Source: a virus (taxonomy: Duplodnaviria > Caudoviricetes). Taken from it: a DNA stretch of 38,710 bases. The notes below the pieces were generated by a model. The model saw only the letters and a list, made by a program, of their open reading frames with translations. It had not been told where the DNA came from and ran no database searches. The DNA is taken from positions 1 through 38,710 of the IMG/VR virus record IMGVR_UViG_3300044260_000033, one strand, 5' to 3'. Below, one piece after another: positions 2,063 through 21,474 of the stretch (its first letter is position 1; every line of letters starts with the position of its first letter). Both the position numbers and the translations under genes were made by a program.

Positions 2063-2115
2063 CGCAAGATAGGGTCTGGACAACGGCGCGCGGAACACCT
2101 ATGGTTGTCGTGGTC
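2063..2115 (+). promoter_or_regulatory. Early promoter P1 (TGGACA-N17-TATGGT)
   Basis: -35-like TGGACA 2077-2082 and -10-like TATGGT 2100-2105; 21-nt block identical to 15296-15316. Confidence 0.7.
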
Positions 2116-2155
2116 GGAGCAGTCAACCGGCCGGGACCAGTCGAGGAGACGAGAC

Positions 2156-3292
2156 GTGAACGCAATCCAGCAGGCCATCGCCGCGAGCGGACGGAGCAGC
2201 TACTGCAGTAAGTGCGGGAGCCTCAAGCCGGTCGGCGAGTTCTACATCCGCCCCGACGGCCGCGTCTCGGCGATGTGCAAGGCGTGCAAGGCGCAGTACC
2301 GAGCGACCAAGCGCGGCTCGACCCCGCGAGCCCCGCGAGCGACGACGGCCAAGGTCGCGAGCCGCTCCGCGGTCCAGGCGGCGCAGGCCGCGGCCGCGCA
2401 GGTCTCGACGGCTCCGACGCCGGTCGCGCGAGCGATCGCCAAGGTCAACTCCGACTACAAGCCGGCGCCGGACCTCATCGCCACCTGGGCCGCGGTCCAG
2501 CTGATCGCCGCCGACGGCGAGCCGTCCCCCAACATGCTGTTCGTCGGACCCTCCGGCTCCGGCAAGACCGAGGCGGCCCGGTATCTCGCGGCGCTCTCCG
2601 GTCTCGACTTCGTCAAGGTCGACGCTCCGTCGATGACCGACCCCGAGGCGTGGTTCGGCACGCGCGAGGTCGTCGTCGAGAACGGCTCGCCGCGGACCGA
2701 GTACCACCCGTCGGCGTTCGTCGACGCGCTCACCCGCCCCTGCGTCCTGCTCATCGACGAGGTCAACCGAGTCTCGGACGCGGTCCGGAACATCCTCCTC
2801 GCACTGCTCGACGCGACCCGGCAGGTCACCAACCCGATCACCGGCCAGACGGTCGTCCGGCACCCGGCGTCGTTCATCCTGATGACCGGCAACGTCGGCC
2901 TCGCGTTCACCGGGACCTACGCGATCGACCCCGCGTTCTTCACCCGCGCGCTCACGACGGTGTTCGACTACCTCCCGGCCGGCGACGAGAACCGGCTGGC
3001 GGTCGACCGGACCGGCGTCTCGGCCGAGTCGGCCGGCCTGTTCGTCCGGTTCGCGAACGACACGCGCGCCCGCCACAAGACGGACCCCGACTTCCCGCCC
3101 ATCTCGACTCGCGAGGTTCTCGAGGCCTGCCGGCTCGTCGCCCGCGGTCTCGACGTCGACATCGCCGCGCACCAGGTCATCATCAACGCGGCGTCCGAGG
3201 ACGGCGGCGCGCAGTCCGTCAAGGCCGACCTGGAGCGCATCTGGCTCGGCATCCGGCCGGCGGTCTCGTTCGTCGGAGCGCCCCGCGCCTGA
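2156..3292 (+). CDS. MoxR/CobS-like AAA+ ATPase with N-terminal Cys4 zinc finger
   Basis: Walker A GPSGSGKT, Walker B LLIDEVNR, TGN sensor, ISTRE sensor 2; N-terminal CSKC...EFY...CKAC; start GTG 2156 after AGGAGACGAG. Confidence 0.85.
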   Translation: MNAIQQAIAASGRSSYCSKCGSLKPVGEFYIRPDGRVSAMCKACKAQYRATKRGSTPRAPRATTAKVASRSAVQAAQAAAAQVSTAPTPVARAIAKVNSDYKPAPDLIATWAAVQLIAADGEPSPNMLFVGPSGSGKTEAARYLAALSGLDFVKVDAPSMTDPEAWFGTREVVVENGSPRTEYHPSAFVDALTRPCVLLIDEVNRVSDAVRNILLALLDATRQVTNPITGQTVVRHPASFILMTGNVGLAFTGTYAIDPAFFTRALTTVFDYLPAGDENRLAVDRTGVSAESAGLFVRFANDTRARHKTDPDFPPISTREVLEACRLVARGLDVDIAAHQVIINAASEDGGAQSVKADLERIWLGIRPAVSFVGAPRA

Positions 3293-3307
3293 TCAGCGAT
3301 CCGCGCT

Positions 3308-3342
3308 CGGCCGGCTCCGGAGACGGGGCCGGCCGTTCTGCG
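3308..3342 (+). terminator. Probable intrinsic terminator
   Basis: 12-bp stem CGGCCGGCTCCG/CGGGGCCGGCCG (one G-U) with GAGA tetraloop, followed by TTCTG. Confidence 0.65.
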
Positions 3343-3355
3343 TCCGCGCTGAAGT

Positions 3356-3400
3356 TAGGTCTGGACATCCGGCGCGGCGCAGGTACGATTGGCGTAGTCA
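3356..3400 (+). promoter_or_regulatory. Early promoter P2 (TGGACA-N16-TACGAT)
   Basis: GGTCTGGACA...TACGATTGGCGTAGTC, same layout as P1 and P3. Confidence 0.7.
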
Positions 3401-3419
3401 AGTCACGAGGAGACGAGAG

Positions 3420-5375
3420 ATGGCCAAGCGCAACTGGTGGAACGAGACCTCCGCAGCCGACGACGGCGCGCTCGACGACGACGACGCGTACATCGTCGAC
3501 GAGGACGAGACGGTCGACACCGGCTGGCTCGACGACTTCCGGTTCGACGACTACCGGCTCTCCGGCGCCTCCGCCTCGATCGGCGGGTTCTGGGGGGCCT
3601 ACGGCTCGGCCGACCGGACCGACACGGCCAAGCGCATCGCGGCCGCGCAGCGAGTCGTTCAGGGGTTCGTCAACACGTTCGCGACCGGCGACCTCCCGTA
3701 CCGCGTCACGTTCGACGAGAGCGTCGCGACCGCCGGGACCGACTTCGCGAGCCGGTCGGTCGTCATCTCCCACCGCCCGCTGTTCGACCCCTCGCTGACC
3801 GACGACGAGGCGAACACGATCCTGACGGCGATGGCCTGCCACGAGGCCGACCACGTCCGGTACGGCCGGCACACCGCAGCCGCGGTCGACGCGGCGTTCG
3901 CCGGCGACCGGAACCTCCGAGCCGCTCAGCGCATCAGCAACATCCTCGACGACTCGCGCATCGAGCGCCGGCACGTCGAGGACTACCCCGGCTATGACGG
4001 CATCTACACGCCGGCCATCGACTACGTCGCCCGGACGATGAACCACGGCGCGGTCCCGGCCGCGTCCGCGCTCTCGCCGATCGACGTCATCTGCGGCGCG
4101 GTCCGGTACACGAACCACGTCGACTGGACCGGCTCCGAGACCGAGCGCGACTTCTGGCTCGACTGGGCGGCTCGCGGCTCCGCGGACGACTCGGCCGAGA
4201 CGCACGTCGCGGCGGTCCGCGAGGCCGTCGAGCGGCTCGCCAGCCAGCCGGAGCCGGAGCCGGAGCCGCAGGACGGCCAGGGCAACGGCGAGGGCGGCTC
4301 GCAGAGCGGCGCCGGCGAGAGCGGCTCCGGCCAGCCGAGCGGCTCCGAGAGCGGCGAGAGCGGCTCCGAGAGCGCCGAGAGCGACGAGACCGAGAGCGGC
4401 TCCGAGCCGACGAACGGGACCGGGACCGGCGGGACGGTCGACGACACCTCGACGCTCCCGACCTGCTACGCGGACGCGATCGACGACGCGGCGCGCGAGA
4501 ACGGCGAGACGTCCGGTCTGGAGACCGACGAGGCCCAGGAGCTGATCGAGCAGGCCAAGGCGCTGGTCGACCTCCCGGACGGCAACCACGGCGAGGTCTA
4601 CTGGAGCGCCGACGGCGTCGTCGACACGCGCGACGACGTCGAGGCGAACGGCGCGGCGGCAGCGGCGGTCCGGTCGGCGTTCTCGCGGTCCCGGACCGGC
4701 CACTTCGACGTCGAGCGCGGCCACAAGTCCGGCCGGCTCGACAACCGCTCGCTCGTCCGCGTCGCGTCGAACGACTACCGGCTGTTCAACCGCCGGACGG
4801 CCCCGTCCGAGGGCCGGTACCTCGTCTGGCTGCTGGTCGACTGCTCCGGCTCGATGAACGGCCGGCCGATCGAGCAGGCCACGCAGGTCGCCTCGGCGGT
4901 CGCGCAGGCGAGCCGCGGCCTCCCGCAGCTCCGGCTCGACATCTGGGGCTGGAGCACCGGCTTCCGGCTCGGCGGTCGGTTCGGCGCCACGCGCGTCTGG
5001 ACGACCGGCGCCCCGATCAGCAACGTCGGCTTCCTCCCGAACGTCCCCGGCTCCGGCACCCCGGACGCCGAGGTTCTCCAGTGGGCGACCAAGGCGATCA
5101 AGGCAGCGGCCCGCCGGGACGAGACGCCGGTCATCATCATCGCGAGCGACGGCCAGGGCACCCTCAAGTACGCCATCGAGAACGGCGAGGACCACATCGC
5201 AGCGGCTCGCAAGGCCGGCGTCGAGGTCGTCTCGGTCGCTCTCGGCTCCGGCATCCACCGGGACGCGCAGGAGCGGATGTACGGCCCCAAGGGCTACATC
5301 CCGTGGGCCGGGAGCATCGCGGCGACGGCCGGACCGCTCGGCAAGCTGATCGGCCGCATCGCGTCGGGCCGGTAG
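3420..5375 (+). CDS. CobT-like protein: HExxH metallopeptidase-like domain, acidic linker, vWA domain
   Basis: CHEADH and NILDDSRIE; E/S/G-rich linker; GRLDNRSL; MIDAS DCSGSM, GTP, SDG; adjacent to the AAA+ gene. Confidence 0.8.
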   Translation: MAKRNWWNETSAADDGALDDDDAYIVDEDETVDTGWLDDFRFDDYRLSGASASIGGFWGAYGSADRTDTAKRIAAAQRVVQGFVNTFATGDLPYRVTFDESVATAGTDFASRSVVISHRPLFDPSLTDDEANTILTAMACHEADHVRYGRHTAAAVDAAFAGDRNLRAAQRISNILDDSRIERRHVEDYPGYDGIYTPAIDYVARTMNHGAVPAASALSPIDVICGAVRYTNHVDWTGSETERDFWLDWAARGSADDSAETHVAAVREAVERLASQPEPEPEPQDGQGNGEGGSQSGAGESGSGQPSGSESGESGSESAESDETESGSEPTNGTGTGGTVDDTSTLPTCYADAIDDAARENGETSGLETDEAQELIEQAKALVDLPDGNHGEVYWSADGVVDTRDDVEANGAAAAAVRSAFSRSRTGHFDVERGHKSGRLDNRSLVRVASNDYRLFNRRTAPSEGRYLVWLLVDCSGSMNGRPIEQATQVASAVAQASRGLPQLRLDIWGWSTGFRLGGRFGATRVWTTGAPISNVGFLPNVPGSGTPDAEVLQWATKAIKAAARRDETPVIIIASDGQGTLKYAIENGEDHIAAARKAGVEVVSVALGSGIHRDAQERMYGPKGYIPWAGSIAATAGPLGKLIGRIASGR

Positions 5376-5381
5376 GCTCCG

Positions 5382-5912
5382 ATGGAGACCACCGACCGCG
5401 TCCGGAGGGAGCGGGCCGCGAGGCTCGCCCTCCGGGTCGCGACGATCCGTCCGATGCTCGACTGGGACGACACGGCGGTCCTCGACCGGCTCTGCCGGTC
5501 CGGTCCGTCGCTCTCGTCCGTGACGCTCGCCGCGGACATCTACGGCGACCACCGCATCGGCTGGCTGACAACCGAGCTGTCACTGGACCGGCTCAACGTT
5601 CTCGGTCTCGTGACCTACCGGCTCGGCCAGCACGACGTGTACGTCGAGGTCCGCGCGACGCGGCTCGGCTACGCGGTCGCCGACGTCGAGTGGCGGCTAC
5701 CGCACGAGGTCGGCCGGTCCCGGCTCCGGGACTTCCCGGTCGGCGGGGACATGACCGAGTACCGCCGGCACGGCCTGTCGGCGGTCGGGATGAGCGACGT
5801 CGAGAGGATGCCGCTGGAGCAGCACTGCGAGGTGTACTACGACCACGCGAGCATTCACCTGGAGGCGCTGGAGGAGTGGTGGGCACGAGCAGACGGGAGC
5901 AAGCGACGATGA
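5382..5912 (+). CDS. Hypothetical protein (possible winged helix)
   Basis: Fills the gap with genome-typical codon usage; ATGA overlap with the next gene. Confidence 0.55.
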   Translation: METTDRVRRERAARLALRVATIRPMLDWDDTAVLDRLCRSGPSLSSVTLAADIYGDHRIGWLTTELSLDRLNVLGLVTYRLGQHDVYVEVRATRLGYAVADVEWRLPHEVGRSRLRDFPVGGDMTEYRRHGLSAVGMSDVERMPLEQHCEVYYDHASIHLEALEEWWARADGSKRR

Positions 5913-6091
5913 ACGTAGCTGAGGCGGCCGCGGCGCTCGGCGTCAAGCGGTCGGCGGTCCGCAAGGCCATCGCGCGCGGGACGCTACGCGCCACGAAGAC
6001 CGGCTGGTCGTTCGGAGCGGCGTACGTCATCGAGGCTCGGGACGTCGAGGCGTACCGGGCGCGAGAGGGCCGGAAGGGCAAGGTCCGATGA
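5909..6091 (+). CDS. Excisionase-like helix-turn-helix protein
   Basis: MNVAEAAAALGVKRSAVRKAIARGTLRATKTG...YVIEARDVEAY, typical HTH_17/MerR-like pattern. Confidence 0.8.
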   Translation: MNVAEAAAALGVKRSAVRKAIARGTLRATKTGWSFGAAYVIEARDVEAYRAREGRKGKVR

Positions 6092-7050
6092 TCACCGGCA
6101 TCAGGCAGCGGACGCCGGAGTGGCTCGCCGCTCGGCGGGAGGGCGTGACCGGGACCGACATCCCGGCGATCCTCGGCCTCTCACCGTACCGATCCGAGGG
6201 CGACGTCGCGAGGGAGAAGCTCGGCGAGACCGTCGAGCACGACGCCCGGACGCAGCGCCGGCTCCGGATCGGGACCGCGCTGGAGGACGTCATCCGGGCG
6301 GAGGACGAGGTAGAGCACGGCCACCGGCTCCGGCGCGTGAACCGGCTGATCCGGTCGCGCGACATCCCGTGGGCGATGGCATCGCTCGACTTCGAACGCC
6401 GGGACGGGACCATCGTCGAGGCCAAGTCGAGCCGGGACCGCCGGTGGGACCACGGCCTGCCGCCGGACGTCGAGGCGCAGGTGCAGTGGCAGATGGGGGT
6501 CTCCGGCCGGGAGCACGCGCACGTCGCCGCTCTCCGGTACGGCTCGGACCTCGAGTGCTACGACCTCGACGCCAAGCCCGACGACTTCGCCGGGATGATC
6601 ATCGTCGCCGCGGACTTCCGCCGGCGACTCGCAGAGGGAGGGCCGTTCTCGGAGACGCGCGAGAGCATCAGCCGGGCGTGGCCGGCCGACAACGGGATCG
6701 AGATGATCGCCGACGAGACGCTGGAGGCTCTCGTCGCCGAGTACCTCGCCGCCAAGGCGGCAGCCAAGAGCGCGGACGAGGCCGAGGAGGCCGCGGCGCT
6801 CGCGATCAAGAGCCGGATGGGGCCAGCTGCCAAGCTGACCGGCGCCGGCTGGCACGCGACCTGGAAGCAGAACCGGCCGTCCCGGACGACCGACTGGGAT
6901 CTCGTCGCGTCGGCGTATCGTCGGCTGATCGAGGAGCTGGTCAACGAGGCCGAGGCTCTCGCGCAGGTCGACGCGATCGAGAGCCTCTACACGCGAGAGG
7001 TGCCGGGCAAGCGACCGCTGGTCGTCCGGCGTGACAAGGAGACGAGATGA
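6088..7050 (+). CDS. YqaJ/lambda-exonuclease-like recombination nuclease
   Basis: EWLAARREGVTGTDIPAILGLSPY, ASLD, VEAK, QVQWQM motifs. Confidence 0.88.
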   Translation: MITGIRQRTPEWLAARREGVTGTDIPAILGLSPYRSEGDVAREKLGETVEHDARTQRRLRIGTALEDVIRAEDEVEHGHRLRRVNRLIRSRDIPWAMASLDFERRDGTIVEAKSSRDRRWDHGLPPDVEAQVQWQMGVSGREHAHVAALRYGSDLECYDLDAKPDDFAGMIIVAADFRRRLAEGGPFSETRESISRAWPADNGIEMIADETLEALVAEYLAAKAAAKSADEAEEAAALAIKSRMGPAAKLTGAGWHATWKQNRPSRTTDWDLVASAYRRLIEELVNEAEALAQVDAIESLYTREVPGKRPLVVRRDKETR

Positions 7051-8213
7051 CAGAGGACAAGGCACTGGTCCCGGCGCGCGAGTGGGAGGAGGTCTCCCCG
7101 GCGGAGATCATCGAGTCGGTCGTCATCGGAGGCGACCTGTCGAAGCTGACCCCGCCGCAGCGCGTCGCGTACTACGCGCGGGTCTGCTCCGAGCTGGGGC
7201 TGAACCCGTACACCCAGCCGTTCGCGTATCTCTGGCTGGGACGCGGCGACGACCGGAAGCTGGTGCTGTACGCGAAGCGCGACGCGACGGACCAGATCAG
7301 GCGGAACCTCGGCGTCAACATCACCGCGCTCGACTACCCCTCGATGCCGGAGGGCCTGTTCGGCGTCACGGCGCACGCGCAGTACGGGAGCCGGACCGAC
7401 ACCGCGACCGGCATCGTGTCGGTGATGACCTACGATGGCCGGAACCGTCTGACCGGCGAGCTGCTCGCCAACGCGATGATGAAGGCCGAGACCAAGGCCA
7501 AGCGGCGCGTCACGCTCTCCATCGCCGGGCTCGGACTGCTCGACGAGACGGAGATCGCGAGCATCCCCGACGGCGAGCCGGCCGGCGTCGACGACTCGGG
7601 CAACATCGAGACCCCGCCGGCGACGGTCTCGGACGTGATCGCGGCTCGCGTCGCGGCGATCCAGTCGCCGGTCGTCGAGCCTGTCGAGGCGGTCGCGTCG
7701 ACGGTCGACGGCTCGGGACCGCTGTTCACGGTCGGTGGCGTCCCGCTACCGCGAGAAGCGGAGCCTGAAGGACTGACGAAGGCCACAGATAATCCGGATG
7801 ACGGGTCCCAAGACGTGGAGCCGGAGCCGGAGCCGGACGAGCCGGAGCCAACGATGACCCTCGAGGCGTTCGTCGCGTTCGTCGCGAGGGGGTACGACCG
7901 CGACGCGGTCCGGTCGACCGCCCGCGAGCTGTACCCCGAGGCGTCCGGGTTCCGGCAGCTCTCAGAGGCCCAGCTGGCCGTCCTCGCCGAGGCGGTCGCG
8001 ATCAAGTACCCGCTCCCGGCTCCGGCGACGGCCGAGCCGCCGGAGGAGTCGGAGGAGGAGCTGCTCGCCACGGTCATGTCGGCCGAGGCGTCCGAGGCGC
8101 TCCCCGCCACCTGCAACTCGCGGTCGCCGTTCTCTGACGCGACCTGCGTCAAGCCGATCGAGCACGCCGGCGTCCACACGGCGTCGCTCGCCAACGCCAC
8201 CGAGACGTGGTGA
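7047..8213 (+). CDS. Single-strand annealing protein (RecT/Bet- or Rad52/ERF-like)
   Basis: Directly after the exonuclease; VCSELGLNPYTQPF, LYAKRDATDQ, NAMMKAETKAKRRVTLSIAGLG; acidic Pro-rich tail. Confidence 0.7.
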   Translation: MTEDKALVPAREWEEVSPAEIIESVVIGGDLSKLTPPQRVAYYARVCSELGLNPYTQPFAYLWLGRGDDRKLVLYAKRDATDQIRRNLGVNITALDYPSMPEGLFGVTAHAQYGSRTDTATGIVSVMTYDGRNRLTGELLANAMMKAETKAKRRVTLSIAGLGLLDETEIASIPDGEPAGVDDSGNIETPPATVSDVIAARVAAIQSPVVEPVEAVASTVDGSGPLFTVGGVPLPREAEPEGLTKATDNPDDGSQDVEPEPEPDEPEPTMTLEAFVAFVARGYDRDAVRSTARELYPEASGFRQLSEAQLAVLAEAVAIKYPLPAPATAEPPEESEEELLATVMSAEASEALPATCNSRSPFSDATCVKPIEHAGVHTASLANATETW

Positions 8214-8224
8214 GGAGAGACGAG

Positions 8225-8560
8225 ATGAGCAAGCCCCTGTTCAACGCGGTCATCCGGATCAAGCACACCGGCAACGGCGTCGCCGCGACGGCGCCGGAGG
8301 TTCTCGGCCGGGACGGTCAGTGGCACGAGCTGGCCGCGTCGTCGATCAGCGAGCGGACCGGGACGCACGGGACGACCGTGACGCTCCGGATGCCGGGACG
8401 CATCGAGTGGGTCGACATCGGTCCGGCGACCGAGACCCACCTGGTGTGCGACATGTGCGAACACGTCGAGCCGACGCTGGACCTCGCCGGGCAGGACTGC
8501 CCGACCTGCGGCGCCGGGACGATGGTGGAGGAGCCGGTCGCGCCGGCTCCGGTCCCGTGA
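8225..8560 (+). CDS. Hypothetical protein with C-terminal zinc ribbon
   Basis: ATG after AGGAGAGACGAG; CDMC...CPTC. Confidence 0.65.
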   Translation: MSKPLFNAVIRIKHTGNGVAATAPEVLGRDGQWHELAASSISERTGTHGTTVTLRMPGRIEWVDIGPATETHLVCDMCEHVEPTLDLAGQDCPTCGAGTMVEEPVAPAPVP

Positions 8561-8811
8561 ACGGCGACGGCGCGGACCTCCGGGACTTCGCCGTCCAGAT
8601 GCGCGCTGTCGTCGACCAGTTCTCGGTCGGCGCGCAGCGCGCGTCGGACGCGCTGACCGAGTGGGCTCGGCTCTACGCGAGCAACGCGCTGATCGGCTCC
8701 CTCCCGGACGTCCTCCCGACCGTCGACTACCCCGACGAGCGCGGCTGCCGGCTCTGCGGAGCCACCATCGAGTTGGGATGCTGCACGCGGTGCGGCGTCC
8801 CGGAGGAGTGA
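8557..8811 (+). CDS. Hypothetical protein with C-terminal Cys cluster
   Basis: GTGA overlap start; CRLC...CCTRC. Confidence 0.5.
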   Translation: MNGDGADLRDFAVQMRAVVDQFSVGAQRASDALTEWARLYASNALIGSLPDVLPTVDYPDERGCRLCGATIELGCCTRCGVPEE

Positions 8812-8812
8812 G

Positions 8813-9547
8813 ATGACCACCGACACGACGATGCCTGACGGCCACTGGACCTTCGACGCGAGCGTCACGGACGCGTTCGACGATATGCTGGAGCGGTCCA
8901 TCCCGGCGTACAACGTGATGCGCGACCTGACGACGTCGCTCGCGGTCGCGCACCTGCAGCCGGGGACCGCGCTCGTCGACCTCGGCTGCTCCCGAGGCCA
9001 GGCGATCGGCCACGTGCTCGACCGGCTCGACCACGACACCCCCAACTGGCGCCGAGCCGCGGTCGACGGGACGCGGTTCGTCGGCGTGGACGTCTCGGTC
9101 CCGATGCTCAACGCGGCCCGCCAGCGGTTCGCCGGCAACCGGCTCGTCGACATCCGGCCGTGCGACCTCCGGACGTCGTACCCGGACGAGATGGCGTCGG
9201 TCACGCTCGCGGTCCTGACCGTCCAGTTCACGCCGATCGAGCACCGGCTACGTATTCTCCAGAACGCGTACAACCACACCGTGCCGGGCGGCGCGCTCCT
9301 GATCGTCGAGAAGCTGCTTGGCGAGTCGGCCGAGCTGCACGACGTGTACGACCGCGAGTACCTCCGGATGAAGGCCGCGCACGGCTACACGCAGGAGGCC
9401 ATCGTCCGCAAGAAGGCGTCGCTAGAGGGCGTGCTCGTCTCGACGTCGGCGCGGTACCTCCAGCACATGCTAGAGGGTGTCGGGTTCCGGTACGTCGACG
9501 CGTACTACCGCTGGCTGAACTTCGGCGGCTGGGTGGCGGTCCGATGA
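8813..9547 (+). CDS. cmoA: CmoA-like carboxy-S-adenosylmethionine synthase (class I SAM-dependent fold)
   Basis: WTFDASVTDAFDDMLERSIPAY, LVDLGCSRG, GVDVSVPML, LTVQF, PGGALLIVEK, GYTQEAIVRKKASLEGVL and RWLNFGGWVAVR all follow the CmoA pattern. Confidence 0.8.
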   Translation: MTTDTTMPDGHWTFDASVTDAFDDMLERSIPAYNVMRDLTTSLAVAHLQPGTALVDLGCSRGQAIGHVLDRLDHDTPNWRRAAVDGTRFVGVDVSVPMLNAARQRFAGNRLVDIRPCDLRTSYPDEMASVTLAVLTVQFTPIEHRLRILQNAYNHTVPGGALLIVEKLLGESAELHDVYDREYLRMKAAHGYTQEAIVRKKASLEGVLVSTSARYLQHMLEGVGFRYVDAYYRWLNFGGWVAVR

Positions 9548-9843
9548 CGCCGGACGACCAGATGAGCCTCGCGCTGTTCAAGTTCTGCCACGAGGCTATG
9601 CACGGCCATCTCGCTCGGCTCGTCGAGTCGGGCTCCGGTCCATCGTCCCTCGAGGCCGACCTGCTCGGACCGCTCGCTATGGAGATGTTCTACGGCGGTC
9701 TGAGTCTCGCGCTCCGGTACCCGGCCGAGGCCGCGCTGTACCGCGAGCAGATGCGCGGGATCGCTCCCGGCCGCGAGGCCGTCGAGCGGACCGAGACCGA
9801 GGACATCGACGCGCTCGCTGCGGCGACGAGGAGGCCGGCGTGA
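9544..9843 (+). CDS. Hypothetical protein
   Basis: ATGA overlap with cmoA; MTPDDQMSLALFKF... Confidence 0.55.
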   Translation: MTPDDQMSLALFKFCHEAMHGHLARLVESGSGPSSLEADLLGPLAMEMFYGGLSLALRYPAEAALYREQMRGIAPGREAVERTETEDIDALAAATRRPA

Positions 9844-10088
9844 GCAAGCCGCGCCACTTCGGACAGCAGCTCGTCCAGCGAGGGCCGGTCCCGCGCCGGC
9901 TCCAGGAGTCGATCGACGAGGCCGAGCGGCTCGCGTTCGCCGTCGAGTGGCGGGACGCCGAGCACCGGCTGGACCTGATGGAGCGCGCTCCGCACCGCGT
10001 CCGGATGATCATCCGCCGGGACGAGGAGCGCGCGTACGAGGAGGAGCTGCGGCGTCGAGCCGCGGAGGAGACCGATGGAGAGGCCTGA
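9840..10088 (+). CDS. Hypothetical protein
   Basis: GTGA overlap; GAGGAGG RBS upstream. Confidence 0.55.
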   Translation: MSKPRHFGQQLVQRGPVPRRLQESIDEAERLAFAVEWRDAEHRLDLMERAPHRVRMIIRRDEERAYEEELRRRAAEETDGEA

Positions 10089-10287
10089 TCCGCACCGGAT
10101 GCCGCTCCGCGTCCGGCTCGCGTACGTCGTCCACCGGCACGTCCTGAACCCGCTCGCGTGGCGCTACGCGAGACCGCCGGGACCGCAGTGGGGGATCGTC
10201 GACCGCATCGACCGCCGGCACCCGCTCTGGCGGCTCAACGACCGCGTCGCCAACGTCTGGACGTCGTGGTGGGTGGAGCACCTATGA
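10075..10287 (+). CDS. Hypothetical Trp/Arg-rich small protein
   Basis: GGAGGAG RBS; stop overlaps the MTase ATG. Confidence 0.5.
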   Translation: MERPDPHRMPLRVRLAYVVHRHVLNPLAWRYARPPGPQWGIVDRIDRRHPLWRLNDRVANVWTSWWVEHL

Positions 10288-11765
10288 GCGACCTGACGCA
10301 CGCGTCGTTCTTCTCCGGTATCGGAGCGTTCGACCTGGGGCTGGAGCGCGCGGGGTTCCGCGTCGTCTCGCACGCGGAGGTCAAGCCGTTCTCGTGCGCG
10401 GTCCTGGAGACGCACTGGCCGGGGGTCCCGAATCTCGGCGACATCAACGCCATCTGCCCTACGGGCGAGGGCGACCACGAGTGCGAGATACCGCCGGCCA
10501 CCGTCTGGTCGGGTGGGTTCCCGTGCTCCGACTTCTCCATCATGGGACTACGGAAGGGACTGCTAGGTGGCAACCGATCCTCCCTCGGACTGGTCTTCCT
10601 CGACCTTGTTCGACGACACCGCCCTCCGTTCGTCGTCCTCGAGAATGTCCCCGGGCTCCTCTCTTCTCATGAGGGCCGGGACCTTGCGCTCCTCCTCAGT
10701 GTTCTGGAGGACATCGGGTACGGGTGGGCGTTCAGGCTTCTGGACGCGCGACACTTCGGACTACCCCAGGCGCGACGGCGGCTATTCATTGTCGCGGCTG
10801 CTGATGCCGAACGTGCCGGAGCGGTTCTCGATGACGTCACGGACCGCGGCGTGGATGCTGCGTCGTTCGGAGGACCGAGCGGAGCCGCTCTGGCCGGAGG
10901 TAGAGACGGCGCTGATCAGCGTCCTGCAGTCGTCATCGGACCTACATACGCTCCTCGCTCAGACGCCATCGTCCGCACCGACGGGACTACGTTCCCGATC
11001 ACGCCCGGCAACCTCCAGTACGTCCTCGACGAGCCAATCACCATCCAGCGCCGAGGGTTCTCCGGAGCCGACGTCCGACGGGACGGAACAGCCTACACCC
11101 TCCTCCCCGACGACGCCGGCCGACAGTACGTCACCGAGCCGATCGTCATCGAGCGGCACGGCCACTTCGAACCGCAGGTCAAGCGGGACGGGACGGCGTA
11201 CACGATCCTCCCGGTCGGAGCCGGCGGCAACATCGGACAGCAGTACGTCGTCGACCGAGGACCGGGACCGACCGTTCTCGCCGGCGTCTTCCCGAAGCGA
11301 CGAGAGCAGCGCTCCCCGAGCCGAGCCGACGGGAGCAGCTACACCCTCACTCCCGGAGTCATCCCCTACGTCGTCGAGCCCGGCGACTGGGACGACCTCC
11401 CTGATGTTCGGGGAGACGGAGGACTGGGAGGAGACCGAGACGGAGCCGGAGCCGGAGCTGGTCTCCGGGCTCTCGCTCCCGCAGAGGATCATCGACCGGC
11501 TCCTGACGGAGACGATCCCGCCGGTACGGGTCCGGCGCCTGACGCCGACGGAGTGCGAGCGGCTGCAGGGCTTCCCGGATGGCTGGACGATCCCGTCGGA
11601 GACGGCGTTGACCCGGTGGGGCCGCAGCATCTCGACACCGCTCGATGGCACGTCCTCGGACGCGCTTGCCCGGTCCCTGTCGTCGAGTGGATCGCGCTCG
11701 GCATCCGCGCAGTCATCAACGGAGACGAGGTGAGTGGTGAAGACGCAGACGCAGCAGGTACTTGA
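10284..11765 (+). CDS. DNA cytosine-C5 (carboxy)methyltransferase, alpha polypeptide (motifs I-VIII and X)
   Basis: FSGIG (I), GDI (III), GGFPC (IV), ENVPG (VI), QARRRLFIVA (VIII), ARWHVLGRACPVPVVEWI (X); motif IX is absent from this frame. Confidence 0.88.
   Translation: MSDLTHASFFSGIGAFDLGLERAGFRVVSHAEVKPFSCAVLETHWPGVPNLGDINAICPTGEGDHECEIPPATVWSGGFPCSDFSIMGLRKGLLGGNRSSLGLVFLDLVRRHRPPFVVLENVPGLLSSHEGRDLALLLSVLEDIGYGWAFRLLDARHFGLPQARRRLFIVAAADAERAGAVLDDVTDRGVDAASFGGPSGAALAGGRDGADQRPAVVIGPTYAPRSDAIVRTDGTTFPITPGNLQYVLDEPITIQRRGFSGADVRRDGTAYTLLPDDAGRQYVTEPIVIERHGHFEPQVKRDGTAYTILPVGAGGNIGQQYVVDRGPGPTVLAGVFPKRREQRSPSRADGSSYTLTPGVIPYVVEPGDWDDLPDVRGDGGLGGDRDGAGAGAGLRALAPAEDHRPAPDGDDPAGTGPAPDADGVRAAAGLPGWLDDPVGDGVDPVGPQHLDTARWHVLGRACPVPVVEWIALGIRAVINGDEVSGEDADAAGT
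10567..11733 (+). CDS. Overprinted +1-frame polypeptide (C5-MTase beta subunit carrying motif IX)
   Basis: 388 codons open inside the MTase gene; contains SLSRLL...ERFSMTSRTAAWMLRRSEDRAEPL and RRLTPTECERLQGFPDGWT (11533-11589); AAGGGA upstream of GTG; true start uncertain. Confidence 0.7.
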   Translation: MATDPPSDWSSSTLFDDTALRSSSSRMSPGSSLLMRAGTLRSSSVFWRTSGTGGRSGFWTRDTSDYPRRDGGYSLSRLLMPNVPERFSMTSRTAAWMLRRSEDRAEPLWPEVETALISVLQSSSDLHTLLAQTPSSAPTGLRSRSRPATSSTSSTSQSPSSAEGSPEPTSDGTEQPTPSSPTTPADSTSPSRSSSSGTATSNRRSSGTGRRTRSSRSEPAATSDSSTSSTEDRDRPFSPASSRSDESSAPRAEPTGAATPSLPESSPTSSSPATGTTSLMFGETEDWEETETEPEPELVSGLSLPQRIIDRLLTETIPPVRVRRLTPTECERLQGFPDGWTIPSETALTRWGRSISTPLDGTSSDALARSLSSSGSRSASAQSSTETR

Positions 11766-12003
11766 CGCGCTCCGGGAGCGCGGACCGGAGGGGCTGACGC
11801 CTCTCGACGCGCAGCGGTGGATCGGGACGATGCGGCTCGCCGCTCGCGTCTCGGACGCCAAGGAGCTGCTGGACGACGACGAGGAGATCATCACCGAGCG
11901 GTTCCGGACGCCGGGAGGGGCGGTCGTCGCGCGGTACGTCCTCCGACGTAGGACGGTCCGGGAGGCGGTCCCGATGACGCTCTGGCCGGAGACAGGACGA
12001 TGA
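11734..12003 (+). CDS. Winged helix-turn-helix protein (HTH_39-like)
   Basis: TQTQQVLDALRERG..LTPLDA...IGTMRLAARVSD...VVARYVL; GGAGACGAG upstream. Confidence 0.7.
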   Translation: MVKTQTQQVLDALRERGPEGLTPLDAQRWIGTMRLAARVSDAKELLDDDEEIITERFRTPGGAVVARYVLRRRTVREAVPMTLWPETGR

Positions 12004-12290
12004 GACGTCGCACGGGTCTTCGTGGCTCTTCGGGCACGTCGATCCCGCCGGCGCTCAGGCTGGAGGTCCTGGAGCGCGACCGCGGCTGCGTCGGGTTCGG
12101 CCGGTTCCCCGGCTACTGCGCCGGCGCGCTCCAGCTAGACCACGTCCGCGCGTCGCACGGGATGGGGATGAAGTCCGAGACCGAGGTCGGGAACCTCGTC
12201 GCGCTCTGCGGCGCGCACCATCAGTGGAAGACCGAGCACGGACGCGTCGCGCGTCCCATCCTGCTCGCGTACCTGGAGACGAGGGCATGA
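12000..12290 (+). CDS. HNH endonuclease
   Basis: VLERDRGC...LQLDHV...GNLVALCGAHHQWKT. Confidence 0.85.
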   Translation: MRRRTGLRGSSGTSIPPALRLEVLERDRGCVGFGRFPGYCAGALQLDHVRASHGMGMKSETEVGNLVALCGAHHQWKTEHGRVARPILLAYLETRA

Positions 12291-12625
12291 TCAGCAGCCC
12301 GTACCGGCCACGGCCGGTGGAGCACGACGAGGAGCTGGGGCCCGTCCGGTACTGCCCCGGCTGCGACGAGTGGTGGCCGGACGACGAGGAGTTCTGGATC
12401 GTCTCCCCGCCGCACGAGGTCGGCGAGGTCGGACGCTACCGGGACCGGACCTACATCCGCCGGACGCCGAGCCAGAAGATCCTGTGCCGCGCCTGCCACT
12501 ATGAGCGCAAGCGCCGGTGGAACGAGCGGAACGACGTCGACCCGGAGCGGCGGGAGCGCCGGCTGCGCCAGATGCGCGAGAGCGCGAGACGCTACCGGGT
12601 CCGCCGGCGAGAGGCGGCGTCCTGA
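12287..12625 (+). CDS. Cys4 zinc-finger protein with basic C-terminal helix
   Basis: CPGC...EFW...CRAC followed by an Arg-rich helix; GGAGACGAG at 12275-12283. Confidence 0.65.
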   Translation: MISSPYRPRPVEHDEELGPVRYCPGCDEWWPDDEEFWIVSPPHEVGEVGRYRDRTYIRRTPSQKILCRACHYERKRRWNERNDVDPERRERRLRQMRESARRYRVRRREAAS

Positions 12626-13191
12626 TGCCGGAGCGCGAGGCCAAGGGCCGGATGCTCGTCCGGGAGCTGATGGCCGACCGGGAGTTCATGACGGCGTTCT
12701 CGGCCGAGGAGCGCGAGTGGTACCTGCTGACGTCGCTGTTCGCCGACGACGCCGGCTACCTCGTCTGGGACGTCGAGAGCAACGCGGCGAACCTCTACCG
12801 ATACGAGACTCCGCGTCATCGAGTCGTGAAGGTCCGACGGATCGCGGCCAAGATGATCAGCGCGGACAGGCTCGTGGAGCTGGAATGCGGCCGCCACGCG
12901 TTCATGCCGCGGGTCGCGAGACGCCCTAGGGGGATGAAACGGGAGGACGGCGTCCGTCGAGAGCACTCCGAGTGCACTCCCAGTGCACAGGGTGAGCAGT
13001 CGGATCGAGAAGCGGAGAGTGCTCAGGGAGTGCACTCGGACAGCTCAGCTGTGCACTCGCCTTCCCTTCCTTCTCCAAGCCATACCAATCCCACGCGCGC
13101 GACCGCGCGCGACGGGCTGAGGCCACTGAGAGAGGCGCTGGTCGCGAACGGCCTGGACCCGGCGCTGCTCCCGGAGAGGAGGTCGCGATGA
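12625..13191 (+). CDS. Putative replication initiator / replisome organiser
   Basis: RMLVRELMAD.EF...WYLL...FADDAGY N-terminus resembles phage O-like initiators; internal DNA repeat array and PSLPSPS linker. Confidence 0.55.
   Translation: MPEREAKGRMLVRELMADREFMTAFSAEEREWYLLTSLFADDAGYLVWDVESNAANLYRYETPRHRVVKVRRIAAKMISADRLVELECGRHAFMPRVARRPRGMKREDGVRREHSECTPSAQGEQSDREAESAQGVHSDSSAVHSPSLPSPSHTNPTRATARDGLRPLREALVANGLDPALLPERRSR
12961..13078. repeat. Iteron-like palindrome array, probable replication origin
   Basis: GTGCAC-centred palindromes near 12970, 12981, 13028, 13049; perfect 15-bp inverted repeat 12967-12981 / 13026-13040; pyrimidine tract follows. Confidence 0.6.
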
Positions 13192-13580
13192 TCTACGTCG
13201 TCGGCGAGCGGCTCGGGACCGGACGGAGCCGGCATCGTCTCGCCTCGCTGTTCGGGGTCTCGGAGGAGCAGATGATGGAGCACGTCGTCTGGGTGAACCT
13301 CTGGGACTATCCGGGGGCCGTCCCGGACAACTACGCGGCGATGATTGAGCAGGCGGCGCTCTACACGGACACCGTCGTCCTGCTCGGCCGGAGGGTCGCC
13401 GGCGTGTTCGCTCTCGGGACCAAGCCGTGGCTGACGCGGATCGTCCGGAACGCCGGCGCCGGTCCCGACGTGCTCGTGATCCCGCATCCGAGCGGCCGCA
13501 ACTTCTGGTGGAACGCCAAGGCCAACGAGGACGCGGCTCGGTCCCTGCTCCGGGCCGCGTGGATGAGGAGCGGACGATGA
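13188..13580 (+). CDS. Uracil-DNA-glycosylase-superfamily-like protein
   Basis: IYVVGE, WVNL, VVLLGRRVA, VIPHPSGRNFWWN. Confidence 0.65.
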   Translation: MIYVVGERLGTGRSRHRLASLFGVSEEQMMEHVVWVNLWDYPGAVPDNYAAMIEQAALYTDTVVLLGRRVAGVFALGTKPWLTRIVRNAGAGPDVLVIPHPSGRNFWWNAKANEDAARSLLRAAWMRSGR

Positions 13581-17353: not shown

Positions 17354-17884
17354 ATGCCGATCGTTATCCGGGACGAGACCCACTTCGCACCGTACGACGA
17401 CCCGGCGCAGGTCATCGTCGACCTCGCCGACTCGGCGACCAAGAGCATCCACATCGACATCTACGGGTTCACCTACGCTCCGCTGATGGACGCGCTGATC
17501 GCCGCCCACCAGCACGGCGTCGCGGTCAACATCGTCGCCGACCACACGCAGGCGGCCGGTCCCGCGGAGCGCGTGCAGCTGCAGCGGCTCGTCGACGCCG
17601 GGATCGACGTTCTCGTCGGGACCTCGAGCCGCGGAGCGATCGACCACTCCAAGTACATCATCATCGACGCCGAGCTGGGACCGTCCGACCCGCTCGCGTG
17701 CGTCGGGTTCGGCTCGTTCAACTTCAGCGAGAGCGCGAGAGCGCAGGACAACACGTTCTCGGTCCGGAACGACGGCGGGCTGGTCGCCGCGTTCCTCGCC
17801 AACTGGCAGCGCGTCCACGACGACGCGTTCGACAAGCATCCGGAGTGGCAGGTCACTCCGAGCATCGGAGGGAGCGGATCATGA
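17354..17884 (+). CDS. Phospholipase D superfamily protein (single HKD, Nuc/Zucchini-like)
   Basis: LADSATKSIHIDIYGFT, HSKYIIID (HxK-x4-D), GSFNFS. Confidence 0.85.
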   Translation: MPIVIRDETHFAPYDDPAQVIVDLADSATKSIHIDIYGFTYAPLMDALIAAHQHGVAVNIVADHTQAAGPAERVQLQRLVDAGIDVLVGTSSRGAIDHSKYIIIDAELGPSDPLACVGFGSFNFSESARAQDNTFSVRNDGGLVAAFLANWQRVHDDAFDKHPEWQVTPSIGGSGS

Positions 17885-19305: not shown

Positions 19306-19493
19306 GCCGGCGCAAGCACCGTCCGTCGAAGGCGTCCCGTCCGGCGAGCCGGCGCTACATCGACTCGGCCATGCGGCGTCTCCGGGACGACGTCGTCCGA
19401 GCCGTCCTCTGGGCCGGTCGCCCGGACGTCGTCGAGCAGATGACGCAGGAGCAGATCGAGCGCCGGCTACGCGGCTATGGTCGCGGCCGGTAG
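19302..19493 (+). CDS. Small basic protein
   Basis: ATGA overlap; Arg-rich. Confidence 0.45.
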   Translation: MSRRKHRPSKASRPASRRYIDSAMRRLRDDVVRAVLWAGRPDVVEQMTQEQIERRLRGYGRGR

Positions 19494-21474
19494 CGTCGTC
19501 CGTCCTACTCGCGCGCCGGGGCAGGTCGCTCCCGGCGCGCGGGAGCGCGCTCGCGGCTCGTCGGCTCGGCGCGGCTACGGTCGGGGCTGGCGCGCGGTAC
19601 GGCGCAACCACCTGCTCGACGAGCCGCTCTGCCGTAGCTGCGGCGCTCTCGGCGCTCACGTGGACCACATCGTGGAGCGGCGGGACGGCGGGACGGACGA
19701 CGAGTCGAACCTGCAGACCCTCTGCAGCTCCTGCCACTCCCGCAAGACCCTCAAGCGGACGCGGGCCGGCCGGAAGTCGGCGCACAATACCAAACCGGCG
19801 CCGGCCGGAGACCGTTACGCTCGTTTCCGCGAGAGACACCTGCAGGTTTCTCAGCCCCCCTCGGCGGTGGCGGCCGGACCGCAGCAGATCACGGGTACGA
19901 CGCCGGAGCAGCTCACCCTCGTCCCCACCCGGTCTCCGCTCCGGCCGTTCACGATGCGGCACTGGCGGCGGTGGACGTCCGACCTGATCCTCGACAACGG
20001 CGAGTCGTGGCACCCGGAGGGCTTCCAGGACGCGTTCGTCGAGGACGTGTTCTCCGGCGTCAAGGAGGCGTGGCTGGTCGTCCCGGAGGGGAACGGCAAG
20101 TCGACCCTGCTGAGCGGGCTCGGGCTCTACCACACGGAGCACCGGCCGCACGCGTCGGTCCCGATCGCCGCGTCGAGCCGGGAGCAGGCGGAGATCATGT
20201 ACCGGCAGGCCGAGGGTTTCGTGCTCCGGTCGGACCGGCTCCACCGGACGGTCCGGAGCGACCTGCAGGCGGCCAAGGGCAAGCGGAAGCTCGACGTCCC
20301 GCTGTTCGTCTGCCTGGAGGGCTATCGCCGGATCAACCACGCGGAGGGCGGCCGCATCCAGGTGTTCGCCGCGGACGACCGGACCGGCGACGGGATCATC
20401 CCGACGCTCGGGCTGCTCGACGAGCTGCACCGCCACCGGGACCTCGGCCTGTACCGGACGTGGGCCGGCAAGCTGCTGAAGCGCGACGGCCAGGTGGTCG
20501 GCATCTCGACCGCCGGCGAGCCGGGAAGCGACTTCGAGCAGACGCGCGAGGCCATCAGGCGCCGGAGCACGGCCGTCGAGTCTCGGGGGTTCTTCACCCG
20601 CTACGCAGGCTCCGGCGTCGTGCTACACGAGTGGATGGTCCCGGCCGACGTCGAGCCGGACGACTTCCGGGCGGTCAAGCGCGCGAATCCGCTCCGGAGC
20701 ATCACGGTCCCGGACCTCCGCGAGAAGTTCAACAGCCCGACGATGACGCTCCCGCACTGGTCCCGGTTCGTGATGAACCGGCCGACGCGCTCGTCGACCG
20801 CGGCGATCGAGGACCGTGAGTGGGCGCTCGCGGCGACCGACGAGGTCATCCCGGAGGGCGAGCCGGTCTGGCTCGGTCTCGACGTCGCGTGGAAGTGGGA
20901 CACGACCGCGCTCGTCCCGCTCTGGTGGGCGTCGCCGGAGCACCGGCTTCTCGGGCCGGCGACGATCCTGACCCCGCCGCGCGACGGCTCGTCGCTCGAC
21001 CCCGACCTCGTCGAGGCGGCCCTACTCGCGGTCCACGCGCGGAACCCGGTCCACACGGTGGTGATGGACACGACGCGAGCCGAGCAGCTGGCGACCTGGA
21101 TCGCGCGGACGCTCGGCGCGACCGTCGTCGACCGGCCGCAGACGTCGCTCTGGGCGGCCGCCGACTACGCGTCGTTCACGGAGGCGCTCCGCTCCGGCTG
21201 GCTCCGGCACTCCGGCGACGCCGGCCTGACCAAGCACGTCCTGAACGCGATCGCCAAGCCGCTCCCGGACGGCCGCCTGCGGTTCGACCGGCCGGCCGAC
21301 AACCGCGTCGCCGGCGCCGAGCAGGAGCGGCGAGTCATCGACGCGCTGACGGCGGCCGCGATGGTCCACTCGGTCGCCGCAGAACCCGCCGAAGAGCCCG
21401 AGCCTACACCTGGACTCCTCGCGTATTATGAGGCGCAGATCGCGGCCGCCACTGCCGCGGCGAGCGGAGCCTGA
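19477..21474 (+). CDS. terL: Terminase large subunit with in-frame N-terminal HNH endonuclease
   Basis: RGYGRGW...PLCRSC...VDHI...NLQTLCSSCHSRKT (HNH); VPEGNGKST, LLDELH, ISTAG, ANP, LGLDVA..WDTTA, IDALTA (TerL). Confidence 0.88.
   Translation: MVAAGSVVRPTRAPGQVAPGARERARGSSARRGYGRGWRAVRRNHLLDEPLCRSCGALGAHVDHIVERRDGGTDDESNLQTLCSSCHSRKTLKRTRAGRKSAHNTKPAPAGDRYARFRERHLQVSQPPSAVAAGPQQITGTTPEQLTLVPTRSPLRPFTMRHWRRWTSDLILDNGESWHPEGFQDAFVEDVFSGVKEAWLVVPEGNGKSTLLSGLGLYHTEHRPHASVPIAASSREQAEIMYRQAEGFVLRSDRLHRTVRSDLQAAKGKRKLDVPLFVCLEGYRRINHAEGGRIQVFAADDRTGDGIIPTLGLLDELHRHRDLGLYRTWAGKLLKRDGQVVGISTAGEPGSDFEQTREAIRRRSTAVESRGFFTRYAGSGVVLHEWMVPADVEPDDFRAVKRANPLRSITVPDLREKFNSPTMTLPHWSRFVMNRPTRSSTAAIEDREWALAATDEVIPEGEPVWLGLDVAWKWDTTALVPLWWASPEHRLLGPATILTPPRDGSSLDPDLVEAALLAVHARNPVHTVVMDTTRAEQLATWIARTLGATVVDRPQTSLWAAADYASFTEALRSGWLRHSGDAGLTKHVLNAIAKPLPDGRLRFDRPADNRVAGAEQERRVIDALTAAAMVHSVAAEPAEEPEPTPGLLAYYEAQIAAATAAASGA

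Follow-up and report, generated by a model that had tools for sequence, protein, structure and literature searches.

The viral genome recorded as IMG/VR IMGVR_UViG_3300044260_000033 (the whole record, 38,710 nucleotides (nt), was analysed and is called the window here) carries a cmoA-like gene in the same chain of overlapping genes as a gene for a cytosine-C5 DNA methyltransferase (C5-MTase), in which an arginine, Arg460, stands in motif X where the relatives of the enzyme have asparagine. We propose, with a probability of about 0.72, that carboxy-S-adenosylmethionine (Cx-SAM) made by the CmoA-like protein of the phage is used by this transferase, which we predict to consist of an alpha chain and of a beta chain read from a second frame inside the alpha gene, to put 5-carboxymethylcytosine (5cxmC) in the phage DNA. 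The combination of cmoA with the arginine is the published signature of the CmoA/CmoX pathway, and the arginine tracks cmoA in the clade to which the transferase belongs; at the level of sequence both observations favour the original prediction (a note drawn from the letters of the window alone), which had proposed Cx-SAM synthesis and a 5cxmC mark.

In the process that we envisage, the phage CmoA would convert S-adenosylmethionine (SAM) and host prephenate to Cx-SAM, while ribosomes would read alpha from the ATG at 10284 and beta from the GTG at 10567. The chains might then assemble, with beta contributing part of the small domain along with motif IX, in the layout known from M.EcoHK31I. Cys81 of alpha would attack C6 of the cytosine, and Arg460, placed by alignment at the position of Arg350 in SpCmoX, would hold the carboxylate of Cx-SAM. 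Tandem cassettes in alpha would probably determine the target sequence or sequences and, without CmoY, the mark would likely stay a free carboxylate and likely block the restriction enzymes of the host.

The carboxymethylcytosine mark was first shown in 2025, when Yang et al. reported that the CmoA of Synechococcus phage S-B43 makes Cx-SAM, that CmoX, with Arg350 at the position of HhaI Asn304, makes 5cxmC at GC from Cx-SAM only, and that CmoY adds glycine (PMC12783734). Modification by SpCmoX protects DNA from HhaI (PMC12783734). This CmoA-CmoX-CmoY set is the cyanophage pair of CmoA and methyltransferase that the original prediction had mentioned. The CmoA/CmoX pathway is already known; the new part of the present case is the two-frame layout and the separate lineage of the enzyme.

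The Motif X Arginine and Its Lineage

The alpha chain has the C5-MTase fold, the catalytic Cys and ENV; no other DNA-transferase-like gene was found in the genome. Its motifs, in the standard C5-MTase numbering from I to X, are I (SFFSGIG), II (EVK), IV (GFPC), VI (ENV) and VIII (QARRR), followed by a variable region and motif X; motif IX is absent. It begins 736 nt downstream of the cmoA-like open reading frame (ORF) and is joined to it by three overlapping small ORFs, in agreement with the separation of about 740 base pairs first noted. The arginine reported at 11661-11663 is likewise there (codon CGC, Arg460). As to its equivalence with the motif X asparagine, a profile alignment of 86 homologues (a sequence alignment rather than a per-residue structural superposition) aligns the Arg460 segment with HhaI residues 291-320, Asn304 falling at the matching position, the match of this stretch itself being weak (independent E-value 15). 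An AlphaFold model of alpha, mostly confident at residues 1-190 and 461-480, is tied between HhaI (Z 19.7, root mean square deviation 3.0, 203 residues aligned) and CmoX (PDB 8YF3; Z 19.4, root mean square deviation 3.4, 195 aligned).

Among the best 120 of 303 matches in a search with alpha, the first 21 (the protein of the window included) form a tight clade, here called the Arg clade, in which motif X has Gly-Arg without exception, motif IV has PCSD and motif II has EVK; the other 99 are its sisters. Motif IV reads GFPC in 20 of the 21 and GVPC in one; it reads SPPC in 120 of 120 SpCmoX homologues. The column of Arg460 holds Asn in 98 of the 99 sisters (one was not called), and in 137 further representatives it holds Asn in 129, Asp in two and Arg in none, with six not called. 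Two apparent Arg residues among the sisters and three apparent Arg or Lys residues among the representatives proved on recheck to be pattern artefacts.

A tree was built from motifs I-VIII, with the Arg position excluded, for 70 sequences: 13 of the 21 Arg proteins, 40 sisters (36 with Asn, three with Asp, one uncalled), 11 SPPC/Arg proteins and six others, three more having been dropped when extraction of the core failed. The Arg group forms one branch (support 100/99) within two supported branches of the sister family and far from SpCmoX, and a joint grouping of the Arg clade with the SPPC enzymes is rejected (approximately unbiased test, p-AU 0.00068). The change from Asn to Arg probably arose, as judged from this tree, inside an Asn-bearing two-frame family and separately from CmoX. 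Single-protein scans found no Arg-clade locus besides the window, and clade-specific DNA patterns gave 0 matches in viral contigs and in genome contigs; alignment scans for such loci returned solely Asn or Asp sisters, and cultured phages and plasmids gave only distant matches to the catalytic domain.

Other residues and lineages were met at the same position. A third lineage with Arg consists of single-chain C5-transferases with GFPCAT in motif IV, motif IX in frame and CGRTVTIPV as motif X, which are encoded directly upstream of cmoA (L220:6917-7996, L247:6908-7987 and L303:6917-7996) and form a long branch apart from the clade of the window and from SpCmoX. Nested among the Arg enzymes of the SPPC family are four (L171, L172, L174 and L175) in which the motif X residue is Leu (IGLMV) or Met (CGMSV, IGMSV); these could possibly represent losses of Cx-SAM use. 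A C5-transferase directly after cmoA in a Staphylococcus SPbeta-like phage (L169:4184-5182) has the motif X sequence VGGVIN, with neither Asn nor Arg.

The Nested Frame and Motif IX

The C5-MTase ORF of the original prediction is real, but it is not complete as an enzyme, since motif IX lies only in the +1 frame nested within it, in an ORF that matches positions 209-300 of the PF00145 profile (E 2.4e-6). All 21 members of the Arg clade lack an in-frame motif IX, and in alpha all of them retain a shadow of it, D.D[GR][VM]R. We also examined 160 sister loci, in which motifs IV-VI were found in 159 and motif X in 129, and which reduce to 110 non-redundant genes. Motif IX lies in the +1 frame only in 65 of these 110 genes, in the main frame only in 39 and in neither in six, with no case of its presence in both or in the +2 frame. 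In 65 of 65 the +1 frame that carries it is uninterrupted from a point no more than 20 codons away from the catalytic Cys, and codons 15-110 past this Cys are free of stops in 129 of 136 genes in the +1 frame and in 0 of 136 in the +2 frame. A relative about 90% identical, from a second sequencing run (depth about 5), differs by five substitutions in 11524-11586, a stretch that covers motif IX and the few codons preceding it; they are silent in four of four beta codons and alter five of five alpha codons. From the split among the sister genes, the placement of motif IX in the clade and the substitutions in the relative, we take the +1 frame to be real. A comparison of conservation by frame across the sister loci (0.89 for beta vs 0.55 for alpha) was set aside, as 11 of its 68 stretches lay outside the open alpha frame.

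By analogy with M.EcoHK31I, the transferase is likely to be a two-chain alpha/beta enzyme, of which the assembly and the GTG start are predictions. This carries a warning for laboratory use: codon-optimised expression of the annotated ORF alone would destroy beta, and the product would probably be inactive. Between about residues 125 and 275, in its middle part, beta is a low-complexity sequence rich in Ser and Thr.

Even where the main frame contains motif IX, most of the genes (L001-L160) keep the +1 frame open over motifs V-VIII (129 of 136 overall), so the N-terminal segment of beta seems to be needed wherever motif IX lies. At its other end, the TGA stop of beta directly abuts, in the same frame, the GTG of a winged-helix gene (11734-12003), which overlaps the final 32 nt of alpha (window 11731-11765).

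The CmoA-like Protein and Its Association with the Arginine

The best PDB match of the CmoA-like protein is E. coli CmoA (4GEK, E 2.8e-28, residues 10-243), and the protein matches PHROG 4752 at E 6e-62. Seven contact or conserved residues of the E. coli enzyme named in PMC3663124 are retained (Y33, D56, G58, S60, D93, D118 and E166 for E. coli Y39, D62, G64, S66, D89, D117 and E164). It is 24% identical to SpCmoA and, to judge by these comparisons, likely makes Cx-SAM. The three small ORFs that follow cmoA encode 70-99 amino acids (aa) and have no meaningful family match. They are probably not part of the system. One matched cmoA/transferase pair (the pairing was arrived at indirectly) has room on 2549 nt and leaves about 330 nt over, so these ORFs look dispensable.

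The window is the only Arg-clade locus seen directly, and linkage in the other members was judged by a proxy, namely a longest contig of identical size with the same source label. By this measure a CmoA homologue among the 119 other listed CmoA matches belongs with seven of the 20 other Arg members vs one of the 99 Asn sisters (Fisher p 1e-5). The contig of this single sister is too short for both genes; two of the Arg/cmoA pairs were re-checked. A tblastn search found cmoA in 0 of 160 sister-family loci, many of them short. The eight paired CmoAs fall in one branch of 23 sequences (Shimodaira-Hasegawa-like approximate likelihood ratio support 91) of an 84-sequence tree from a quick search, in which some clustering is expected since the sequences were taken from the top matches; this branch sits among CmoAs that flank genes for SPPC/Arg CmoX and for ParB-fused transferases. 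The simplest history suggested by these sequences would be that a lineage of two-frame methyltransferases acquired cmoA and the arginine.

Near the relatives of this cmoA, 68 of 160 loci (L179-L338) have a ParB-fused non-C5 transferase-like gene instead of or besides the C5 enzyme; further examples are L166:702-2237 (Gordonia phage Evaa gp2) and L168:2324-3880 (Pseudomonas phage SM1 gp052). Such ParB-fused methyltransferase-like genes are candidates for a second class of Cx-SAM acceptor.

Alternative Explanations

A number of observations count against the proposal that the CmoA-like protein and the two-frame transferase install 5cxmC. The CmoA-like protein scores 136 bits against NCBIfam TIGR00740, below the cut-off of 193; E. 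coli Asn132 is replaced by V134 (and by Leu in SpCmoA); and Arg199, which binds the carboxylate in E. coli CmoA (PMC3663124), aligns with K201. The last substitution had been raised earlier as a caveat. The Lys is there, but its weight as an objection is small because SpCmoA, a biochemically validated phage enzyme, has Glu at the aligned position, from which it appears that the Arg199 salt bridge is not required in that enzyme. This column holds Arg in 89, Lys in 28 and Gln in four of 121 aligned rows (the best 120 listed matches plus one cultured-phage protein), always preceded by Lys; PMC7496830 contains nothing on Arg199 of CmoA. The model of alpha has a mean predicted local distance difference test score of 48, with values under 50 over residues 191-459, and the tree of the transferases was built without a true outgroup and with a bootstrap that had not fully settled. 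Thirteen of the 20 other Arg members are unmatched among the listed CmoA sequences, and the linkage of cmoA in the members that are matched is indirect. A basic residue in motif X is compatible with methylation, as M.MedI-N377K methylates fully with SAM (more than 99% protection; PMC12015181). Finally, an open +1 frame of 389 codons arose in 166 of 5000 codon resamplings (3.3%; 71% G+C), so openness of the frame is by itself a weak argument.

The alternative that best survives, although we regard it as unlikely, is that the alpha/beta enzyme is a methyltransferase of the ordinary or the dual-cofactor kind, which would make mostly 5-methylcytosine (5mC) in vivo and in which the arginine is tolerated and does not switch the cofactor. 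The activity of M.MedI-N377K, the loss of Arg199 from the phage CmoA and the Met or Leu of some SPPC-family enzymes, from which it appears that the site can drift, would all be in keeping with it. However, the arginine is invariant in the clade, is absent from all 229 called sisters and representatives and coincides with cmoA; the Arg-bearing SpCmoX takes Cx-SAM only (PMC12783734), and the validated phage CmoA likewise does without Arg199.

Less probable still is that beta is no separate chain, whether because alpha works alone, because programmed shifts lead into and out of the +1 frame, or because the gene is decayed or misassembled. The GTG start and the beta protein are predictions only, the Ser/Thr stretch in the middle of beta is of low complexity, and open +1 frames are not rare at 71% G+C. 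Against this stand the clade (21 of 21 members without an in-frame motif IX, with the shadow kept), the 65/39/0 split among the sister genes, the selection on the beta frame seen in the relative and the proven precedent of M.EcoHK31I (PMC2836561), and a single-chain version with frameshifts would require two of them. A contig at depth 68 in one sediment-metagenome run, which may be the source of this DNA, agrees with the window with zero differences. That motif IX is out of frame through sequencing error was rejected on the clade-wide state, this contig and the sister genes.

We hold it to be very improbable that 5cxmC is only an intermediate, which either an enzyme of the host or a phage protein so far unrecognised (the product of a small ORF, for example) modifies further. 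Such a step would have a parallel in S-B43, of which the virion DNA contains only the glycine amide (PMC12783734), and three ORFs of unknown function do lie between cmoA and the transferase. In the complete genome, however, tblastn with three CmoY and two ParB queries gave no match at E 0.05 (a remote ligase could escape), no SGGxDS motif occurs in any of the six frames, and the small ORFs are short and, on the indirect evidence of the matched pair, look dispensable. Free 5cxmC is the likely end product because no CmoY was found. The notion that CmoA serves some other purpose (a drain on SAM against host defences, or tRNA modification) and lies near the transferase incidentally can point to the distance and the three ORFs between the two genes and to the ParB-fused genes at 68 of 160 related loci, but it is scarcely credible beside the facts that no DNA-transferase-like gene besides the alpha/beta one was found in the genome, that no cmoB-like match occurs among the ORFs scanned and that the transferase carries the one substitution known to favour Cx-SAM.

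Comparison with Known Systems

As in S-B43, a phage cmoA in the window accompanies a C5-transferase that has Arg at the position of HhaI Asn304, and this transferase shares with CmoX the catalytic Cys, the motif II Glu, ENV and the fold. It differs from CmoX in having GFPC and not SPPC, in sequence (27% identity over 116 residues), in belonging to a separate lineage, and in its tandem cassettes and second-frame motif IX, CmoX being one chain; unlike S-B43, the genome has no CmoY or ParB that we could find. The survey by Yang et al. retained sequences having both SPPC and Arg (PMC12783734), and the window enzyme falls outside this 5,615-sequence filter because it has GFPC. On its sequence, the enzyme appears to work like CmoA/CmoX yet is no CmoX by published definition or descent.

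The beta chain of M.EcoHK31I, for which the code lies within the alpha gene in another frame, contributes motif IX (PMC2836561). The likeness of the window enzyme to it, which is drawn from the published description and not from direct sequence comparison, lies in an alpha carrying motifs I-VIII, motif X and a variable region and in a nested beta with motif IX. M.EcoHK31I belongs to a restriction-modification system and produces 5mC within YGGCCR. The window gene, by contrast, is an orphan in a phage: its motif X has Arg, cmoA lies nearby, beta is long (388 aa) and there are several cassettes. M.MpeI N374K and M.MedI N377K likewise have a basic residue in place of Asn in motif X, which lets them use Cx-SAM; unlike the window enzyme, they are engineered, monomeric, CG-specific, carry Lys and are active with SAM (PMC12015181).

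The multispecific C5-methyltransferases of Bacillus phages (SPR, H2 and others) have several tandem variable-region modules, which in those enzymes are proven target-recognition domains (PMC8936443) and of which the cassettes of alpha are a putative counterpart. The cassettes of the window, overprinted by beta, are probably target-recognition modules too, to go by their position and shuffling: clade proteins have one to five of them by pattern match, in shuffled order. Several targets are plausible because the Bacillus phage enzymes carry such domains in tandem. Word frequencies in the window (CG observed/expected 1.36, GC 0.93, CTAG and CATG low) give no usable hint of a target.

A literature search, with most subscription papers outside its reach, found one natural carboxymethylcytosine system and no two-frame one, and the text of four supplements of PMC12783734, figures apart, has no mention of R199, GFPC, a heterodimer or a reading frame. 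The case points to convergence of the carboxymethyl switch and to whole lineages that the published SPPC filter overlooks. The sister family and the Arg clade form a natural Asn/Arg pair (GFPCQD with GN and motif II EID vs GFPCSD with GR and EVK), which might be used to find the further changes that a methyltransferase needs before it prefers Cx-SAM. If the proposal is true, the enzyme would be the first carboxymethyltransferase in split form. Targeted editing makes use of split C5 enzymes, and direct 5mC sequencing of carboxymethyltransferases. Because both kinds of enzyme are already in such use, one with swappable target cassettes is a candidate tool.

We give about even odds to a wider proposal, that in the lineage of the window carboxymethylation of DNA cytosine arose naturally a second time. 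Here a heterodimeric, possibly multispecific two-frame enzyme would have taken up cmoA and the Asn-to-Arg change independently of CmoX and would be retargeted by the shuffling of cassettes under the constraint of two frames, with unconjugated 5cxmC in the virion, an end state of which no natural genome has so far given an example.

Genome Setting and Other Features

The features discussed above are placed on the window in Table 1.

Table 1. Positions in the window of the cmoA-like gene, the two-frame transferase gene and their elements
Feature	Position	Strand	Remarks
cmoA-like carboxy-SAM synthase, 244 aa	ATG 8813..9547	+	homology to CmoA
Small ORFs 9544-9843, 9840-10088 and 10075-10287	9544..10287	+	overlapping chain from cmoA to the transferase
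Alpha chain of the C5-transferase, 493 aa	ATG 10284..11765	+	motifs I-VIII, variable region, X
Motif IV GFPCSD with catalytic Cys81	10515..10532	+	GFPC, unlike SPPC of published CmoX
Shine-Dalgarno-like GGAAGGGA, in-frame TAG stop and proposed beta GTG	10552..10569	+	at alpha codon 95; predicted from sequence
Beta ORF, 388 aa	GTG 10567..11733	+	+1 frame, wholly within alpha
Conserved beta segment SLSRLL...FSMTSRTAAWMLRRS	10786..10869	+	weakly like the Dcm small-domain segment after motif VIII (conditional E 0.0035)
Four tandem cassettes of ~30-40 aa in alpha, ..DGT/Sx[FY][TP][IL]xP..	10938..11381	+	probable target-recognition modules
Motif IX RRLTPTECERLQGFPDGW	11533..11586	+	beta frame only
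Arg460 codon CGC, motif X LGRACPVP	11661..11663	+	invariant in 21/21 clade members

The genome is most likely complete and circular, at about 38.5 kb, because the window has a terminal overlap of 168 nt. Its matches to terminase, tape-measure, Dit and Sipho_Gp37 proteins are those of a siphovirus-like phage, and its G+C content is 70.6%, in line with the small high-GC siphovirus of the original prediction. No sigma-70 promoter-like site was found in window 5300-13000. Among the 31 ORFs scanned no reverse transcriptase was matched. A tail-fibre-like gene with an Mtd_N domain (202-2058) stands near the start of the window and is followed by a MoxR-type pair, an AAA (CbbQ/NirQ-like) ATPase and then a VWA/CobT-like protein (2105-5375). 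Further along are a weak UDG-superfamily-like ORF (13188-13580, E 3e-4), an ORF with a PLD-like nuclease domain (17354-17884, E 9e-15) and a terminase large subunit that has an N-terminal HNH domain within the same ORF (19477-21474).

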